From positions 1 through 30,248 of the forward strand of contig JBHLQM010000042.1 in the NCBI GenBank assembly GCA_048884785.1: 30,248 bases of DNA, written 5' to 3'. Source of the stretch: Candidatus Thorarchaeota archaeon (GTDB taxonomy: Archaea; Asgardarchaeota; Thorarchaeia; Thorarchaeales; Thorarchaeaceae). Shown here piece after piece: positions 15,435 to 22,627 of the stretch (position 1 is its first letter; each line of letters begins with the position of its first letter). The notes below the pieces were generated by a model, which saw nothing but the letters and a program-made list of their open reading frames with translations, did no database searches and was not told where the DNA came from. The position numbers and the translations under genes were made by a program.

Positions 15435-16793
15435 CTATTCAGTAACTGCACGAGCCTGAAGTGCAATTCGTGGCTTTAGTTCACGAATAGGAATACCTGT
15501 TTCTTGAGCGACCTTTACTATGTCATCCGCCTCTGGTTTAATATTAACAACACTCCCGTCAGCCCCCCGAGAGACCTTAACACGAACCATATACTGCTTG
15601 TCATCGATTTCCAAGCTGCAAACAATTGTCTCACGCTGAGCTTTCAGTCGGCTCCATTCGGAATAACGGATACCCAGAGTTCCAAGATGACGAATCATTA
15701 GCTCTGCGATGCTCTTGAGCCCAGCTTTCGCAGCAATTACTTTTACCAGGAAGCAGGGTCTGTTTTTCTTCCCGTAAGCCGGAATCATAATTACATCATA
15801 GGCAAGGCCCTCAGAAAGGAGTACATCAAACAGATTGCCCATGACTTCACCGTCGGCATCATCTACATTAGCTTCAATAACAATAACCTCGTCTGCGTTC
15901 CACTCGTCCAGCATCTCCGCTCGCTCCTCAACTGTAACTTTCTTCTTTGTAGAAACCACTGGAGCCTGTTTCTCAGGTTTTTTAGAGGGTTCAGGTTTCT
16001 TCTCGGTTGCTGAAGGCTTCTTCTTATCTTCAGGCACCTCTAGTACGCCAATCGATATCTTTAGGATATTTGGAGTTTCGCCCAGATCTCGCAATCCAAA
16101 TCCAAAGCATTGCTTTTCAGGTATGAATCCGTCAGTAGATTCTACAAACCTGTTAACCATTGTTGCCAAGATTGCGGCTCCTGTAGGTGTGAGAACCTCA
16201 GTCTGTGCCTCGCCCGTGTGAAACGGGATATCATGCTTTACAATTATCTCAGATACAGCTGGAACAGGCACTTCTAGCTCGCCATGTTCTGTAGTAATTG
16301 TGCCGCCGCCCACAGCAACTTTGGTGCAGAGAATCTCCGTATCCTCAAAGTAGCCCCCTTTTTCAAGCAGATAGGCGGCGCCAACAACATCAAGAACTGT
16401 ATCAACAGATCCAGTTTCATGCAGGCGCAATTCTTTTTCAGGGATATTATGAGCTCTTGCTTCTGCCTGTATCATCTCATTGAGCGCATCTTTGGCAAAT
16501 TTAGATGCAGTCTTTGAAAGCTCTAGCTCCTCAGAGATAGTATCGATGATACCTCGCAGAGAATCAGGAGTAAACCTGACGTTTTTATCCATTGTCACCT
16601 GCAGTCTCTTGCCCGAAGTGTTACCAACTGACTCCTGAACAACTTTCACTCTGAGCGCAGGATCATAAATGAGTAGACTAGCAGCCACTGGCACAATTGC
16701 TTCATCATCACCTATCAGGTCTAGGAGCGCTGATAGTATCATGTCACCTGAAGCGCCTGCTACTGTGGCATCAATCAGAATAGTCCTACTCAA
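15435..16793 (-). CDS. larC: LarC-family nickel insertion protein (nickel-pincer cofactor biosynthesis)
   Basis: GASGDMILSALLDL, HETGSVDTVLD, EHG.L.VPVPA, E.LTPTGAA, IEANVDD, KKNRP, TLGIR, KPEADD. Confidence 0.88.
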   Translation of the reverse strand: MSRTILIDATVAGASGDMILSALLDLIGDDEAIVPVAASLLIYDPALRVKVVQESVGNTSGKRLQVTMDKNVRFTPDSLRGIIDTISEELELSKTASKFAKDALNEMIQAEARAHNIPEKELRLHETGSVDTVLDVVGAAYLLEKGGYFEDTEILCTKVAVGGGTITTEHGELEVPVPAVSEIIVKHDIPFHTGEAQTEVLTPTGAAILATMVNRFVESTDGFIPEKQCFGFGLRDLGETPNILKISIGVLEVPEDKKKPSATEKKPEPSKKPEKQAPVVSTKKKVTVEERAEMLDEWNADEVIVIEANVDDADGEVMGNLFDVLLSEGLAYDVIMIPAYGKKNRPCFLVKVIAAKAGLKSIAELMIRHLGTLGIRYSEWSRLKAQRETIVCSLEIDDKQYMVRVKVSRGADGSVVNIKPEADDIVKVAQETGIPIRELKPRIALQARAVTE

Positions 16794-16872: not shown

Positions 16873-17703
16873 CTATTTCTTCGCCCGCCGCCACTCCTCA
16901 AAAATGGCCATGTACATACACTCTTGCGGTGGAATCCACATAACTGATGAATCAAATGAATCGTCAACCATCTTCACAGGCGCATCTCGTATCAGGGCAG
17001 CAGGAATTGACTCATTAGACTCACCCATAACTGCAGTACAGGCTGATGCAAGATTATCAGCTATGGCGCGTCTAGTTATTCTCAGCTCATTTCCAAAAAG
17101 GTCCTTTCGACCTCTATCATCTGCAACAGGAATGAACCCAGCAACACCCAAAGCCATTCCAATATTACCAAGGCGAAGTGGTTGCGTCCGACTATCGATT
17201 ACCAATACTCCAATATTCTTGCTAATTCGTTCTCTTGCCTGAGTCCTTAATCTTTCTGCGCTACGCTTCGGATTCTTCGGTAGCAACGACGCGTATCCAG
17301 GAGGAACATTTGACTTGTCTACTCCGGCATTTGCCATCAAAGTATTGTTTTTGATTGTGAGAAGTACATGCGGAATGCCTCCGAGGATTTCATCTGCTTC
17401 ATCCATCACGAGTTGAGTCACTTCAGGTATCATTGAATACTTCTCTGCAAGTCTTATTGCTTCTCTAGATGCTCTTATTGAGGAGAGACTGACAACCTGA
17501 CCTTCAGTTGTACCCAAGGGAGTTTCTGCTACTCCAAGAATGTCACCATCTTTGAGTTCATAGCCAGTCCTGCTCAAACCATCTAAAACAACATCAAGAA
17601 AATCATCTTCCTCTATTATGAGCCGTGTCTTTATTGGAACGACGAGCATTGCCTGCACCAGGAATATTTCATCACTATTGGCAACATAAACACTTCTTAC
17701 CAA
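16873..17703 (-). CDS. cofE: CofE-family gamma-glutamyl ligase (coenzyme F420-0:L-glutamate ligase-like)
   Basis: L.DGDIL.VAE, ANAGVDKSN, LLP.NP..SA..LR, IDS...PLR.G, D.RG..DLFG..L.IT..A.AD.LAS, MGE..E..P. Start may be 17658 or 17649. Confidence 0.85.
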   Translation of the reverse strand: MVRSVYVANSDEIFLVQAMLVVPIKTRLIIEEDDFLDVVLDGLSRTGYELKDGDILGVAETPLGTTEGQVVSLSSIRASREAIRLAEKYSMIPEVTQLVMDEADEILGGIPHVLLTIKNNTLMANAGVDKSNVPPGYASLLPKNPKRSAERLRTQARERISKNIGVLVIDSRTQPLRLGNIGMALGVAGFIPVADDRGRKDLFGNELRITRRAIADNLASACTAVMGESNESIPAALIRDAPVKMVDDSFDSSVMWIPPQECMYMAIFEEWRRAKK

Positions 17704-19113
17704 TCACCTATCTTTTGCCTGGAGTTTAATTCTGGCACCCATGATGCATTTGTCTCCTTTTCTTCCACCCATGGGATTATCCCGAGTTCCAAGTGAATTC
17801 ATACATCTTGCAGCAACCGCTGCACCCATTGCGAGACCGTCTTCTACAAAGACCAGTTGATGGGTTTTGCTCCAAAGATCTTCCTTGACTCTTAGATTAG
17901 ATGCTATTATGGTTGGCTTGTTTCCGCTTGTGATTGCCCGTCCAGTCAAACCAAGGGAGGTTTCCTCCAAGATTAGACCATTCTCGGCGGAGAGAGATAC
18001 CAGCCTGTTCACCAGCGTAGCCTGTGTGAGATCAAGAACTGTGTAAAGACCGTCAAGACCTTGATCTGAAAACAAATCTTTTCCAATCTTTTCTAGCTGA
18101 CTGAGCTTTGATCCATTTGTTCCAACATCCACGCCAATCAATGTGACTCCAGACTCTTCAGCTGCCTTGATATTGACAGGAACAGTTCCATAACGAGTGG
18201 TTCCTGGAGTAATGACTTCTACGCGAATCACACCCTGAATTTCATCTAGGAAATCTGGATGAACAAGAGAATGTGATTTGGCTGTGGCGGATGGCAAATC
18301 GAGAGCTGTTCCGTTAGTGATATCCAAGAATCCAGAACCCCTCACTATTGCATCAGGAATTGCGCCGGCTAAACCAGCAAATGAGCCAATTGTCTTTGCA
18401 TAGGGATGCGAATTGTCTGTAACCCTACCGGCTAATGTAGTGCCGAAGTCAAGTGTCATAACAGGATTTCTGAAGTCGATCTCAGTTCCTTTGACGGCTC
18501 CCTTTATCCCAGCCGTAACTAATTCACCTTCCATTTCATTCGCAACAACACTTGCATTAGCTGGAGGAAGAGAACTGGCAACAGCCCCATCAAAGTAGAC
18601 TTTCTTCAGCCAAGTATATTCTCTCAGATTTGGAGGAAGTGAATCAACAGTTAGGGCTGCAGTCATCTTTCGGGGAGGGACCCCTGCTTTGAGACACCCA
18701 TCTGCTAGAGCCTTCACCATTTCTCCAACATCTTCGGGATTGGAGAATCCAGCAGTCACTCCTGTTGAGCGAACAACAAAATGTAGGTCTTCTTCCACCC
18801 TCATGCCTGCTAATGAAAGAGCTTCCTGTAGTATCCCTGCAATCAGCTCAGCCACTGATTCTCTAGTTAGTTTGACTCCGACAATGGTTTCTCCAAAGAC
18901 TTCTTCATTTCTTAATGGTCTTCTCACATCCCGAGTGAATTTCACAACTTTTGCGAGTTGAAATATCTCGGCTGTTTTCAGATTCGTGGTTGAGAGAATG
19001 CATTTTGTAGTTGTATTGCCGAGCTCCACAGAAGCAACCGTGAAATAGGGACCTAGTCTTGTGGTTGTGATTCCAACAGAACGAGGTTTAATGACCCTGA
19101 CTCGCTTGACCAC
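17704..19113 (-). CDS. Methanogenesis marker protein 14-like (DUF2114), ASKHA/actin-fold ATPase
   Basis: VASVELGNTTTKCIL, TRDVR.P...EEVFG, FVVRSTGVTAGF, NEMEGELVTAGIK, DFRNP...LDFGTTLAGR, FVEDGLA.GAAV.ARCMNSLGT..NP.GG; directly downstream of mtrH as in methanogens. Confidence 0.85.
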   Translation of the reverse strand: MVKRVRVIKPRSVGITTTRLGPYFTVASVELGNTTTKCILSTTNLKTAEIFQLAKVVKFTRDVRRPLRNEEVFGETIVGVKLTRESVAELIAGILQEALSLAGMRVEEDLHFVVRSTGVTAGFSNPEDVGEMVKALADGCLKAGVPPRKMTAALTVDSLPPNLREYTWLKKVYFDGAVASSLPPANASVVANEMEGELVTAGIKGAVKGTEIDFRNPVMTLDFGTTLAGRVTDNSHPYAKTIGSFAGLAGAIPDAIVRGSGFLDITNGTALDLPSATAKSHSLVHPDFLDEIQGVIRVEVITPGTTRYGTVPVNIKAAEESGVTLIGVDVGTNGSKLSQLEKIGKDLFSDQGLDGLYTVLDLTQATLVNRLVSLSAENGLILEETSLGLTGRAITSGNKPTIIASNLRVKEDLWSKTHQLVFVEDGLAMGAAVAARCMNSLGTRDNPMGGRKGDKCIMGARIKLQAKDR

Positions 19114-19124
19114 TACATCAACTC

Positions 19125-20060
19125 CTACAGAAGGCGCCTGTATGGATGATCTTTCACTGGGTCAATACCTAGCTCAAGATTGGAGTATTCAGCGGCAAAG
19201 ATGTCAGCCATAGCAATGACAGGGAATACAGTTTCTGAATTCTTTATCGGACCGTATAGAATGAAATCCGCACCCAAGAGATGAACGGATAGATTTGATG
19301 AGATATCACACGCTTTGAATGCCTCTTTATTCTTCTTTTTGTAGTCATTGAGCCATGTCCACGATGATGGAGCATTATGTATCCCAGATCCGGTTGGCAG
19401 TCCATAGACCGATTTTGAAACAAATGTGAATGCAACTGAAGACCCGGCTCCAGCACCCATAGCTGTTGTAGCAGTGTCAATGAGTGGCTTGGTGATACCA
19501 AGCTCTTTGCTGAGAGGGAGCAATCCTTTTTCTATATTCAATACTCCTTCATCAAGCACTTTGCGCCTTCCTGCTATTGAGGGGTCCTGAGGATTAAAAG
19601 CAAGGATTATCGCACATTCATGCTGAATCTCCTCAAGTGAGTCATATTCAGCTTTTGTAATGGAGATGTTTATTGAGTTGTAAACTGCTCGATCCAGGAG
19701 ACCAATCTCCTCTGCATACTTCAGCCCATGAATACGCACCTGCGGATCTGTTGAATCAATAATGAATGGTGCTTGAGTCAGTGACGTTACGAAGTCAATG
19801 TAGCGCGTCAATGCTTCAGCGGACTCAGAAAAGATTTGAATCAGGCATGGATTGCCTGTTATGCCGGACATATCATCTTGCTGAGATATCAAGGATTCAG
19901 CCGCTTTCGTGTCAAATACTCCTTTTACAGGATCTTCAACAATTTTGTGACCGCCATAGAATATGGTTCCTGCAAGCACAGTAGGAAGCTCACCCGGATT
20001 TCCACCGACACGCACGCCGCCGATATTGTGAATTATTTGTTCTTTTTCAAATATGAACAA
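19125..20060 (-). CDS. mtrH: MtrH-family methyl-pterin:corrinoid methyltransferase (canonical-type)
   Basis: F.F.KEQ, GGNPGELPTVLAGTIFY..HKIVED, PF.IDST, YNSIN, LAFNP, GLPTGSGIHN..S.W.WL, GADF.LYGPI. Start reassigned to TTG 20060 (GGGAGGGA SD, 1 bp after the mtrA stop). Confidence 0.92.
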   Translation of the reverse strand: MFIFEKEQIIHNIGGVRVGGNPGELPTVLAGTIFYGGHKIVEDPVKGVFDTKAAESLISQQDDMSGITGNPCLIQIFSESAEALTRYIDFVTSLTQAPFIIDSTDPQVRIHGLKYAEEIGLLDRAVYNSINISITKAEYDSLEEIQHECAIILAFNPQDPSIAGRRKVLDEGVLNIEKGLLPLSKELGITKPLIDTATTAMGAGAGSSVAFTFVSKSVYGLPTGSGIHNAPSSWTWLNDYKKKNKEAFKACDISSNLSVHLLGADFILYGPIKNSETVFPVIAMADIFAAEYSNLELGIDPVKDHPYRRLL

Positions 20061-20061
20061 G

Positions 20062-20760
20062 TTAGGTTCCCTCCCTGCCAAACAATATTGTGCCTTTTCC
20101 TTCGGCTCGAATTTCGATTCCAATCGGCACAGGGTGAGTCGAAATGATTGCATCTATTAATTGCGAAAATATCATTGATGTTTCAGGATTGTAGAAGACA
20201 CCAAATTCAGGAAGAATCGATACATCTGCGGTTAGGGCTGCTGGAGTCCTTTTTCTATCGTCACCTTTGAAATCTATCCAAATCGCATCTTCGGGGTATC
20301 TTCCAGGATTGCGCTCATTCAATGCATCCACTCTTGCTGCAATGGCTTGTGGGTCTGAGTTGTTCATCATATTGATAAACTCAACCTGTTTTCTGAACCT
20401 TTCAACAGCATCAGCAGGGACGTTTTCTATGTAGGGGATAGCTCCTGAAGCATCTATGATACGTCGCGTTTCAGTATCGACTCCATTGGAATAGAGACTG
20501 GTGAGAGATGCCCCCGTATGATGTCCGGGTACTTCAGGACCTGAAAGAATCAAGAAACGAATGTTGGGATTAGAAACTATATTCACAATGATTCGTTCAA
20601 TTCCAATATTCTCTGTCTTGCAGGTGCCAATGATTCCATATTCAGCAGGAACATCGAACTTCTTGCCAAGCGTGCAAACTGCCACGGGCAAGTCGGGATT
20701 ACCTACCTCGAAATCTCCAGATACCGGAGGCCATTTTCTGCTTTCTCTGTTTTGTCCCAT
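20062..20760 (-). CDS. mtrA: MtrA-family corrinoid protein, soluble, with MtrB-like C-terminal extension
   Basis: WPPVSGDF.VG.P..PVAVCTL, G.CKTENIGIE....N.VSNPNIRFLIL.G.EV.GH (Co-ligand His80), GAIPYIEN, RF..QVE. No hydrophobic C-terminal anchor. Confidence 0.92.
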   Translation of the reverse strand: MGQNRESRKWPPVSGDFEVGNPDLPVAVCTLGKKFDVPAEYGIIGTCKTENIGIERIIVNIVSNPNIRFLILSGPEVPGHHTGASLTSLYSNGVDTETRRIIDASGAIPYIENVPADAVERFRKQVEFINMMNNSDPQAIAARVDALNERNPGRYPEDAIWIDFKGDDRKRTPAALTADVSILPEFGVFYNPETSMIFSQLIDAIISTHPVPIGIEIRAEGKGTILFGREGT

Positions 20761-20771
20761 TTTCCATCAAC

Positions 20772-21698
20772 CTACTCAAAATTTGGGGGATCGAAAAGTT
20801 CTGTTGACAGCCCCAGAGATCTGAGGGATTCCGCAGCAGATGTAGCCATGGCATTTGCCATAAGTGAAACTGCAGTGAACACTTCCTTCGTTCGAATCAT
20901 TGAACCATACATAACGCAATCTGCTGCAAAAAGCTGAGCGGCAATCACCGAAGCAACCAAAGATGACATGTAAGTGGACTCATCATCAAACCCTGGTTGC
21001 TTGAGAAAGCTCCACGCTGATGGAGCGTTATGTGGACTTATGCTGGTTGGTAATCCCAGTTCTGATTTAATGGCAAGAAGCGTGCGGTAGTCCAAACCAA
21101 ACCCAGCTCCTACCGGCATAGTTGCAGGGTCGACAAGAATCCTATCAACGCCTAATTCGGAAGTTTTGGCAATCATCTCTTGAATAATCTTCATTCGTTC
21201 TGGGAGAGATGTTGCCCGTGGGGACCAGCCTAATACGACCGCCATTTTGATGGAACTGGATTTCAGTTTCTCCATCTCATCCTCAGTGGTAGAGAGATTA
21301 ATGCTGTTGTAAATCAGTCGATCTGCCAGTCCGAGCTCGTCACATAATTCAATTCCTCTCAACCGGGCCTGCATGTTTGCTGATTCGAACATAAATGGAC
21401 CATCAATATTCTCTGCTAACCATGAAACATGCATCTCCATTGCGGTGGGAGTGCGTGCGTAGGCCTGGAGAATAAGTGGATGGCCAGTCTTTTGTGTTAG
21501 TGAATTACCTAGAGTGATCCATTGAAGAGCAGTTTGTTTATCAAAAAGACCTTCTTTTGTGTTTTCCACGATAGGCTGTCCTTTAAAGAAAAGTCCACCG
21601 ACTAACACAGTGGGGTTCTCCCCAGGGGATCCACCTATTCGGATCCCGCCAAAATCGAATGTCTGTTGAGGCTTTTTGAACACAAACATCATCATCAT
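20772..21698 (-). CDS. mtrH: Second, divergent MtrH-family methyltransferase
   Basis: F.FKKPQ, GGSPGENPTVL.G.LF, YNSIN, K...GLPT...HNAPSAW, D..MYG; ATGA overlap with metF. Confidence 0.85.
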   Translation of the reverse strand: MMMMFVFKKPQQTFDFGGIRIGGSPGENPTVLVGGLFFKGQPIVENTKEGLFDKQTALQWITLGNSLTQKTGHPLILQAYARTPTAMEMHVSWLAENIDGPFMFESANMQARLRGIELCDELGLADRLIYNSINLSTTEDEMEKLKSSSIKMAVVLGWSPRATSLPERMKIIQEMIAKTSELGVDRILVDPATMPVGAGFGLDYRTLLAIKSELGLPTSISPHNAPSAWSFLKQPGFDDESTYMSSLVASVIAAQLFAADCVMYGSMIRTKEVFTAVSLMANAMATSAAESLRSLGLSTELFDPPNFE

Positions 21699-22627
21699 CC
21701 TCTTTTTAAACGAGGGTGCAAACCTGTAGCTTTTACTAATTCTGGAACACTCTCAGGCCATCCAACACCCATTATATGAATCCCATTCAAACCCTCAATT
21801 CTCTTAACAGCTTCGATGGTTTCAATAGCTATCTCGAGCCCGACTTTCCGAGCTGCACTCTCCCTATCATCCCCGAATAGTCCTTCTTCCGCATCTTGCA
21901 AACGCCTGATGAATTCTTTTGGAACCTTGATTCCAGGGACTCTGAGATTCATCAACTCAGCCATTTCCGAATTCCTCAGCGGCACTATTCCAGCAAGAAC
22001 CCTGAGATTCAATCCTTCAATTTCAGTCATTACGGTTTCAAATGGAGTCATATCATATATTGCCTGCGTTTGAAAAAACTGGGCACCGGCATTTCGCTTC
22101 TCAATGATTCTCTTGACTTGTGAGTCATGGGGTTCGGAGTAGGGATTGAATGTCGCTCCTGCGAAGAAGTCCGGAGCTCCAGTGAGCTCCTCTCCTGAGA
22201 TATCAAAACCCTCCCTCATCACCTCAAGTAAGTCTAGCGCCAATACAGAATCAACATCAAAAACCATTTTTGTCAGGGGGTGTGTTCCGAGAAGAACATG
22301 GTCTCCAGATACAAGGAGGATGTTTCGAATTCCAAGAGCATAGGCCCCATACAAATCACTCTGAATCGCAATTCTATTCCGGTCCCGACCCGTCATCTGC
22401 ATTATTGGTTCTAGACCTTGTTGCAAAAGGAAATGAGAGCAAACAATGCTGCTCATCGATGGAATTCCTCTAGGATTATCGGGTACATTGACCGCATCGC
22501 AATAGCCCCTAATGATACTGATTTGCTCTTGAAGAGCCCCTAAATCTGAACCTCGCGGCGAGCCAATTTCAGCTGTGACAACAAACTCTCCTTTTTGAAA
22601 TAACCACTCAAGATGTGACCGATACAG
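21695..22627 (-). CDS. metF: Methylenetetrahydrofolate reductase (MetF, flavin TIM barrel)
   Basis: EPIMQMTGRDRNRIAIQSDL.GA.ALGIRNIL..SGD, K..AGAQFFQTQ, LAGIVPL, GIHIM. The frame stays open 57 codons upstream of the track's ATG (FVVTAEIGSPRGSD...DAVNVPDNP) to a CTG at 22627. Confidence 0.88.
   Translation of the reverse strand: MYRSHLEWLFQKGEFVVTAEIGSPRGSDLGALQEQISIIRGYCDAVNVPDNPRGIPSMSSIVCSHFLLQQGLEPIMQMTGRDRNRIAIQSDLYGAYALGIRNILLVSGDHVLLGTHPLTKMVFDVDSVLALDLLEVMREGFDISGEELTGAPDFFAGATFNPYSEPHDSQVKRIIEKRNAGAQFFQTQAIYDMTPFETVMTEIEGLNLRVLAGIVPLRNSEMAELMNLRVPGIKVPKEFIRRLQDAEEGLFGDDRESAARKVGLEIAIETIEAVKRIEGLNGIHIMGVGWPESVPELVKATGLHPRLKRG

Follow-up and report, generated by a model that had tools for sequence, protein, structure and literature searches.

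In Thorarchaeota, marker 14 completes a conserved three-part module with membrane-free MtrA and MtrH and is a candidate maintenance factor for the MtrA cobamide

Methanogenesis marker 14 is a conserved third member of a membrane-free MtrA-MtrH module in a non-methanogenic Thorarchaeota genome. The window analysed here is a stretch of 30,248 nucleotides, contig 42 of a 3.6-Mb Candidatus Thorarchaeota metagenome-assembled genome (91.3% complete, 5.4% contamination), and carries on its reverse strand the marker 14 gene mmp14 (17704..19113; 469 amino acids, GTG start), which encodes a DUF2114 protein, a putative ATPase of the ASKHA (actin/sugar kinase/Hsp70) fold. We propose that marker 14 may be an ATP-dependent maintenance factor for the cobamide of MtrA; this reading, in which binding to MtrA, hydrolysis of ATP and reduction of Co(II) are all steps that we infer, is put forward as possible and not quite as probable.

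The open reading frame at 17704-19113 matched PF09887 (DUF2114) with 613.9 bits (cut-off 25) over profile positions 1-449 of 449, and TIGR03285 (methan_mark_14) with 599.2 bits (cut-off 274). A preliminary description, made from the DNA letters, had named the gene marker 14, and these full-length matches bear the name out. All close homologues (58-73% identity) are annotated as Candidatus Thorarchaeota, and representatives from methanogens (Methanobrevibacter and copies from the Methanoliparum cluster) are 47-49% identical. The window gene is an ordinary member of the archaeal family marker 14, which is uncharacterised in function. A lenient Pfam scan of 29 members of the DUF2114 family returned, besides DUF2114, matches at chance level only, and Pfam showed no additional domain in P0129 (546 amino acids) and other longer representatives. 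Fused forms of at least 822 amino acids were looked for and none was found, which is weak evidence.

Directly upstream of mmp14 on the same strand lies mtrH (19125..20060; likely TTG start at 20060), which encodes the canonical methyl-tetrahydromethanopterin (H4MPT):corrinoid methyltransferase subunit (TIGR01114, 391.3 bits, cut-off 271.4), and upstream of it mtrA (20062..20760), which encodes a corrinoid carrier of 232 amino acids (PF04208, 194.5 bits). The TAA stop of mtrA is followed after 1 nucleotide by the TTG start of mtrH, and the TAG stop of mtrH after 11 nucleotides by the GTG of mmp14, which has a GGAG sequence 8 nucleotides upstream. The order metF-mtrH'-mtrA-mtrH-mmp14-cofE-larC recurs at 45 loci taken from species-level Thorarchaeota genomes, as far as each contig extends, with proteins 50-75% identical to those of the window. 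Thorarchaeota MtrA keeps the histidine ligand and the cobamide motif GH(x)TG (GHHTG in the window; H80 is invariant in the alignment) and has no membrane helix, its hydropathy maximum being 1.24 versus 2.76 for Methanobrevibacter MtrA. As the preliminary description held, mmp14 stays beside only the soluble MtrA and MtrH of the Mtr complex.

That description had also called the host a probable non-methanogen, and this holds. No McrA or MtrE was found in the window's own genome, and a tblastn search of the genome with Methanobrevibacter McrA and MtrB-G gave no match, while the same search recovered single copies of MtrA and of marker 14 and three paralogues of MtrH. Across the taxonomic family of the window, MtrE was found in none of 86 genomes, and McrA in none of the 58 genomes that are at least 85% complete, a set that includes single-contig assemblies. 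MCR together with a complete Mtr in the genome, which the preliminary description had named as refuting its reading, was therefore not found.

We then surveyed a sample of 400 Asgard genomes. Within the window's family, 79 of 85 genomes have DUF2114; outside it, DUF2114 was found in a single genome (G310) and was absent from the remaining approximately 314. In the 79 family genomes the gene is intact, single-copy and motif-complete, with most matches running full length without an internal stop. A canonical-type MtrA (170-221 bits, about 230-270 amino acids) has the same distribution as DUF2114 and lies about 1.2 kb away on the same contig; in G310, too, neither MtrE nor McrA was found. DUF2114 was found in none of the 24 genomes of other families whose only MtrA-like matches are weaker (84-162 bits). 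Such MtrA-like domains, mostly in frames of about 500 amino acids, occur in ten other Asgard families (G002-G004, G080, G097, G112-G122, G242, G306-G309, G397). Because these weaker MtrA-like genes of ten Asgard families occur without DUF2114, marker 14 tracks canonical MtrA only. In the profiling of DUF2114 against mtrA, mtrE and mcrA that the preliminary description had suggested, DUF2114 follows canonical MtrA among these Asgard genomes, and MtrE and McrA were found neither in the genomes of the window's family that were searched nor in G310.

Cluster look-ups further returned family members annotated as Undinarchaeales, 'DPANN group' and Hodarchaeaceae. In Undinarchaeales, 24 contigs of up to 158 kb contain a bare MtrA-MtrH-DUF2114 operon (e.g. 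L056 8429-11197, and L057), in which MtrA (215 amino acids) has no membrane helix, MtrH matches TIGR01114 with 348 bits and DUF2114 (398 amino acids) scores 336 bits. In a second DPANN lineage (L058 8189-11341), a fused MtrA-MtrH gene of 544 amino acids stands divergent to DUF2114. No mention of these DPANN sets was found in the literature searched, and the soluble MtrA-MtrH-DUF2114 module in two DPANN lineages is an addition of the present analysis. Four very distant lineages share only MtrA and MtrH as neighbours of mmp14. CofE and LarC are Thorarchaeota-specific neighbours, being adjacent to the gene in neither DPANN nor Methanobrevibacter.

The sequence of marker 14 has the motifs of an ASKHA ATPase. 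The phosphate-1 loop ELGNTTTK (residues 30-37; 19003..19026), the phosphate-2 loop DFGTT (residues 222-226; 18436..18450) and an adenosine-type motif GLTGRA (residues 388-393; 17935..17952; family form GxTGR(A/S)), all on the reverse strand, are conserved in all canonical members of the family. In the alignment columns E30 and K37 of phosphate-1, D222 and T225 of phosphate-2, and G391 and R392 of the adenosine motif are at least 90% conserved, N192/E193 are also kept in canonical members, and the ATP motifs are strictly retained in every MtrA-linked member. The retention of E30/K37, D222/T225, N192/E193 and GxTGR argues for a working nucleotide site. The two loops had already been pointed out in the preliminary description, and both are conserved across the canonical family. 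The specific resemblance that it saw in them to B12-enzyme reactivases (DdrA, EutA, GlmL/MutL) was not confirmed, both loops being of the general ASKHA type; a phosphate-1 loop of GN-T/S-T/S-T style is presumably common to marker 14 and those reactivases.

The window protein contains exactly four cysteines, and these are the four near-invariant cysteines of the family: Cys38 (19000-19002), which comes next after the phosphate-1 loop, Cys140 (18694..18696; labelled as the family's most conserved cysteine in our feature list), Cys437 (17803-17805) and Cys456 (17746-17748). Among canonical sequences, C437 is retained in 51 of 51, C140 in 50 of 51, C456 in 49 of 51 and C38 in 47 of 51. Some variants without C456 or C38 have extra CxxC cysteines directly after C437. 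From this pattern, the four conserved cysteines probably form a metal or iron-sulfur (Fe-S) site.

To compare folds, the protein was modelled with AlphaFold2 from an alignment of 61 sequences, and the model was compared with known structures by Foldseek and VIA-align. The model (predicted local distance difference test, pLDDT, 93.4; predicted template modelling score, pTM, 0.93) has two RNase-H-like domains with an interdomain nucleotide cleft, the ASKHA fold, at a Foldseek probability of 1.0. Residues ~21-445 align to dozens of ASKHA chains at Z 13-17.6, and 147 representative chains reach Z of at least 8. The best matches are type III pantothenate kinase (Z 17.6), followed by AnmK-like protein, a BcrAD-type methylbenzoyl-CoA reductase subunit (9gai_C) and FtsA (all 17.4), and then Kae1 (16.8), EutJ (15.7) and an HgdC-type activator (4eht, 15.6); MurK and PilM are also among the ASKHA proteins near the model. 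The placement of modelled marker 14 in the ASKHA superfamily is solid, and it agrees with the ATPase fold that the preliminary description had read from the motifs. The top scores of the model lie within about 2 Z units, too close to pick one ASKHA family. DdrA (2d0o_A) ranked only 36th (Z 13.2, root-mean-square deviation 4.3, 276 aligned residues), behind pantothenate kinases, Kae1, FtsA and BcrAD-type ATPases, and EutA and GlmL were not among the structural matches listed. The special likeness to DdrA, EutA or GlmL that had been anticipated is not supported by these matches. We also considered B12 reactivases or RACo as stand-out structural relatives and dropped the idea, since neither stood out in Foldseek or VIA-align. 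At the level of sequence, the marker 14 family profile matched no PDB sequence at E <= 10, DdrA included, and none of the 29 members matched PF08841, PF06277 or PF13941 (the DDR, EutA and MutL families) at that threshold.

In methanogenesis by CO2 reduction, energy is conserved solely at the step catalysed by Mtr, whose cobamide has to remain as Co(I). The cobalt of corrinoid methyltransferases alternates between Co(I) and methyl-Co(III) and is occasionally oxidised to inactive Co(II), from which ATP-dependent activases such as RACo, RamA and MAP restore it. To our knowledge, a dedicated ATP-dependent activase is known for every corrinoid methyltransferase system except Mtr. The Mtr activase was called "as-yet uncharacterised" in 2025 (PMC12774963). 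Among 151 Methanobacteriota genomes that are at least 90% complete, DUF2114 was found in 143 and the RACo/RamA-type domain PF14574 in 46; 99 of the 143 DUF2114-positive genomes (about two thirds) are without any known corrinoid activase, as judged by PF14574. M. jannaschii, included as a control, has DUF2114 and Mtr and no PF14574 match. In Methanobrevibacter the DUF2114 gene follows mcrA...mtrEDCBAFGH, 2.4 kb downstream of mtrH. An ATP-binding protein that travels with MtrA and MtrH, independent of the pump and of Mcr, fits the vacant role of an activase.

The eight Methanobacteriota genomes without DUF2114 are uninformative as natural knock-outs. Two have neither MtrA nor McrA, four have no McrA and only a stand-alone short MtrA paralogue, and in two the mcr-mtr region begins near the end of its contig sequence at the start side or the length of its contig is not given; in these two, genes further downstream may be missing from the assembly. 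Short MtrA paralogues of this stand-alone kind were recorded at six loci (L066-L071, in G430, G450, G524, G530, G457 and G532); they are 187-195 amino acids long, have no membrane helix, are 63-74% identical to the corrinoid domain of Methanobrevibacter MtrA and have no other mtr gene within 10 kb.

Based on these observations, we propose that marker 14 may act when an accidental oxidation has turned the super-reduced Co(I) of MtrA into inactive Co(II). The protein would then bind MtrA, and the binding or hydrolysis of ATP would make re-reduction to Co(I) feasible, with the electron coming either via a metal site of the four conserved cysteines or from an external ferredoxin. It would be a functional analogue of the RACo/RamA activases on an unrelated ASKHA scaffold, and the full Mtr pump of methanogens would be served in the same way. 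A more far-reaching and rather speculative proposal is that marker 14 represents a new, non-RACE class of corrinoid reductive activase for Mtr, with the four cysteines holding an Fe-S cluster or other metal, and that MtrA-MtrH-marker 14 is an ancient, self-sufficient, soluble methyl-H4MPT:corrinoid unit that survived the loss of methanogenesis in Asgard archaea and DPANN; the derived Hodarchaeaceae-like form may, on that proposal, serve a short MetE. The DPANN modules, the cysteine tetrad and the count of genomes without a RACE activase are independent circumstantial support for a reactivase role of marker 14.

Several results weigh against the activase role. Marker 14 has no Pfam match to ferredoxin or flavodoxin and hence no recognisable redox domain. 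Its structural neighbours are not specifically reactivases or activases, as pantothenate kinase, AnmK-like, BcrAD-type, FtsA and Kae1 proteins tie with the model at Z 16-17.6, and RACo surfaced by Foldseek alone, with a template modelling score of 0.3-0.36. Not every methanogen has marker 14 adjacent to mtr: L064 is one case, and in M. maripaludis MMP1223 is distant from MMP1560-1564 by locus-tag numbering (PMC9635834). Co-occurrence among relatives amounts to few independent events. The window's genome itself has three RACo/RamA-type activases (PF14574, 220-272 bits; C11:45559-46302, C108:3144-3884 and C115:600-1343, at loci L047-L049, one of them with an internal TAA), which could in principle serve MtrA. 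Co-folding of full-length MtrA with marker 14, with ipSAE values of 0.00 and 0.01, speaks neither for nor against binding.

The Hodarchaeaceae-like homologues (L050-L055, L059, L060) also count against it; their genes are oriented divergently to a neighbouring tandem pair of genes for short MetE-type methionine synthases. One canonical copy from this group (424 bits) has a histidine for the phosphate-2 aspartate, and a divergent subfamily of about 390-410 amino acids has a degenerate phosphate-1 loop and is missing the cysteine tail. No MtrA was found within 8-10 kb of the homologues on these contigs, nor was MtrA seen in the one Hodarchaeaceae-like genome that was reachable (1.1 Mb, clearly partial). 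With such copies in it, the wider family does not have to rely on MtrA or on an intact ATP site. The adjacency of DUF2114 and MetE-type genes recurs in at least six clusters under 50% identical to one another. Short MetE enzymes use methylcobalamin-type donors, and the MetE-type context is still one of corrinoid-type methyl transfer. Further along, most of the Hodarchaeaceae-like contigs carry MptE-like, DHNA, transglutaminase-core and JAB genes.

Apart from mtrA, mtrH and mmp14, the conserved run in Thorarchaeota holds four more genes on the reverse strand. It opens with a gene for a MetF-like methylene-tetrahydropterin reductase (21695..22456; PF02219, 104.5 bits; NF006396 over the C-terminal half), followed by mtrH' (20772..21698), a divergent MtrH paralogue (PF02007, 224.9 bits; TIGR01114, 220 bits, under the cut-off). 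With these two genes (20772-22456) upstream of mtrA, two methyltransferases are encoded together with one corrinoid carrier, an arrangement that suggests that methyl groups are shuttled between an H4MPT pool and a second, folate-like pterin pool. In place of the membrane helix, the MtrA C-terminus (20062-20223) has a conserved soluble tail of about 55 amino acids with the pattern LPE.G....HP....IEV....GTIL.GKE. Downstream of mmp14 are genes for a CofE-like gamma-glutamyl ligase (16873..17703; PF01996, 230.2 bits; TTG start) and a LarC-like nickel insertion protein (15435..16793; PF01969, 311.6 bits), the last gene of the run. The TGA stop of mmp14 directly abuts the TTG of cofE, and the two genes abut in all Thorarchaeota loci whose contig reaches that far. 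The LarC-like nickel-insertion gene ends the run in all Thorarchaeota loci, although the operon is one of cobalt or pterin. In a Hodarchaeaceae-like contig (L059 13612-15250) a CofE-like gene is beside a Pterin_bind (DHPS-type) gene, and the CofE homologues next to mmp14 and Pterin_bind hint, by their location, at glutamylation of a pterin rather than of F420. The three RACo/RamA-type genes of the genome imply several other corrinoid methyltransferase systems. We also considered that MtrA and MtrH feed a short MetE methionine synthase in the window's genome; this was rejected, as no Meth_synt_2 gene was found there.

The association with MtrA and MtrH that underlies the activase proposal would equally be expected of a cobamide loading or exchange chaperone, which, like DdrA/PduG and EutA, would use ATP to open MtrA for the insertion or release of cobamide and transfer no electron. 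Such a chaperone would account for the ASKHA fold common to marker 14 and DdrA (2d0o, Z 13.2) and for the lack of an obvious redox domain; in DPANN, whose members, by what is generally known of the group, probably scavenge cobamide, the gene remains beside mtrA-mtrH. However, marker 14 has no profile similarity to DdrA in PDB or to the DDR, EutA and MutL families of Pfam, DdrA is not among its closest structures, and no DdrB-like small subunit is encoded nearby. It is also generally known that corrinoid proteins of methyl transfer are inactivated by oxidation and not by damage to the cofactor, and the chaperone would leave the four conserved cysteines unexplained. We consider it unlikely. We judge equally improbable a structural, assembly or regulatory partner of MtrA and MtrH, e.g. 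an Hsp70-like clamp that gates MtrA or stabilises the complex without a role in cobalt redox chemistry. Such a partner would explain why marker 14 strictly co-occurs with MtrA and MtrH and is coupled to them in operons, the nearest folds include the non-enzymatic ASKHA proteins FtsA, PilM and EutJ, and Hodarchaeaceae-like homologues with degenerate ATP loops persist beside methyltransferases. Yet no MtrA-linked member has lost the ATP motifs, and descriptions of the published cryo-electron microscopy structures of native Mtr mention no subunit of this kind.

The structural matches would also suit a small-molecule kinase or ligase that acts on a cofactor of the pathway (a pterin or the cobamide tail) together with the CofE-like and LarC-like proteins: the top structures include type III pantothenate kinase (Z 17.6), AnmK-like protein (17.4) and MurK, mmp14 abuts cofE in all Thorarchaeota loci, and pterin-biosynthesis genes (MptE-like, DHNA) are near Hodarchaeaceae-like loci, with the CofE-like gene beside Pterin_bind in one contig set. 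This seems quite unlikely to us. Neither CofE nor LarC adjoins the gene in DPANN or Methanobrevibacter, and across the lineages only MtrA and MtrH are shared as neighbours; a biosynthetic step would, from general knowledge, be surprising in the reduced genomes of DPANN, of which contigs only were examined, with their bare three-gene operon; and Mtr-less methanogens that use cobamide are without the gene (PMC4153887). A decaying leftover of methanogenesis without a present function in Thorarchaeota is the least credible explanation and, in our view, very improbable. Adam et al. 2022 called the gene a methanogenesis 'remnant' (PMC9635834), but 79 of 85 family genomes carry it as one intact copy with all its motifs, at interspecies identities of just 58-73%, its junctions are translationally coupled, and it has been independently retained in two DPANN lineages.

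The link of marker 14 to Mtr has been reported before. Borrel et al. 2014 found arCOG04866 (marker 14) to be absent from Methanomassiliicoccales, which have no Mtr, and to lie close to the mtr operon in several orders, and they concluded that it takes part in the function of Mtr (PMC4153887). Adam et al. 2022 described m26 (DUF2114, arCOG04866, MMP1223) as 'tied to Mtr' and reported its occurrence in Thorarchaeia (PMC9635834). The core inference, that marker 14 follows Mtr and not Mcr and is present in Thorarchaeia, is thus already published; the view of the preliminary description that it is no strict methanogenesis marker and goes with a soluble corrinoid module, not with Mcr or the pump, is borne out, and is likewise not new. 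In the literature searched, which did not cover the early biochemistry on the stimulation of Mtr by ATP, no paper assigns to marker 14 a fold, a mechanism, or an ATPase or activase role. The idea of a reactivase is specific and can be tested directly with soluble proteins, and no publication of it was found in that literature. Marker 14 is a small, soluble, single-gene candidate for the Mtr activase, and the soluble three-gene modules of Thorarchaeota and DPANN would allow tests with purified proteins in a system free of membranes. If the idea is true, an orphan methanogenesis marker will gain a function and a new activase class will be defined, and 'marker 14' will no longer be usable as evidence of methanogenesis in metagenomes.

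Compared with published marker 14 (arCOG04866/m26, e.g. MMP1223), the window protein belongs to the same full-length family with the same motifs, cysteines and link to Mtr, and nothing essential differs; for the published Thorarchaeia copies, the soluble MtrA and MtrH partners without MtrB-G or Mcr have already been described. The RACE activases (RACo of CoFeSP, RamA, COG3894) share with marker 14 the ASKHA ATPase core and the location beside genes of corrinoid methyl transfer. They differ in sequence, as no marker 14 among the 29 members matches PF14574 at E <= 10 while the genome's own RACE genes score 220-272 bits, and in their redox part, as marker 14 has no Fer2 or Fer4 domain for a [2Fe-2S] or [4Fe-4S] cluster and only four dispersed cysteines. 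The reactivases DdrA/PduG, EutA and GlmL/MutL have the ASKHA fold and a link to a B12 protein in common with marker 14. However, DdrA/PduG, EutA and GlmL serve radical enzymes, in which they exchange damaged adenosylcobalamin, and depend on a small subunit, whereas the corrinoid protein MtrA is a carrier of methyl groups; the adenosylcobalamin reactivases sit with their radical enzyme, and marker 14 has MtrA, MtrH, MetF-like, CofE-like and LarC-like proteins as neighbours.

The BcrAD/HgdC 'archerase' ATPases, the activators of benzoyl-CoA reductase and 2-hydroxyacyl-CoA dehydratase, are among the best structural matches of the model (9gai_C, Z 17.4; 4eht, 15.6). They are ATP-driven donors of low-potential electrons with an ASKHA fold and a cysteine-bound Fe-S cluster, which is the chemistry that the reactivase model would need; the cluster is a [4Fe-4S] centre that bridges the dimer through two cysteines of each monomer. 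Their sequence relation to marker 14 is remote, since PF01869 matched weakly in one of the 29 members (E 0.051), far below the cut-off, and marker 14 is about 200 amino acids longer with large insertions. Relative to the membrane MtrA-H complex of methanogens, MtrA and MtrH of the window are of canonical type and MtrA retains its histidine ligand, while MtrB-G are missing from the genome by tblastn, MtrE is missing from the family and MtrA has no C-terminal helix. To this soluble set, the Thorarchaeota operon adds a second MtrH paralogue and a MetF-like gene.

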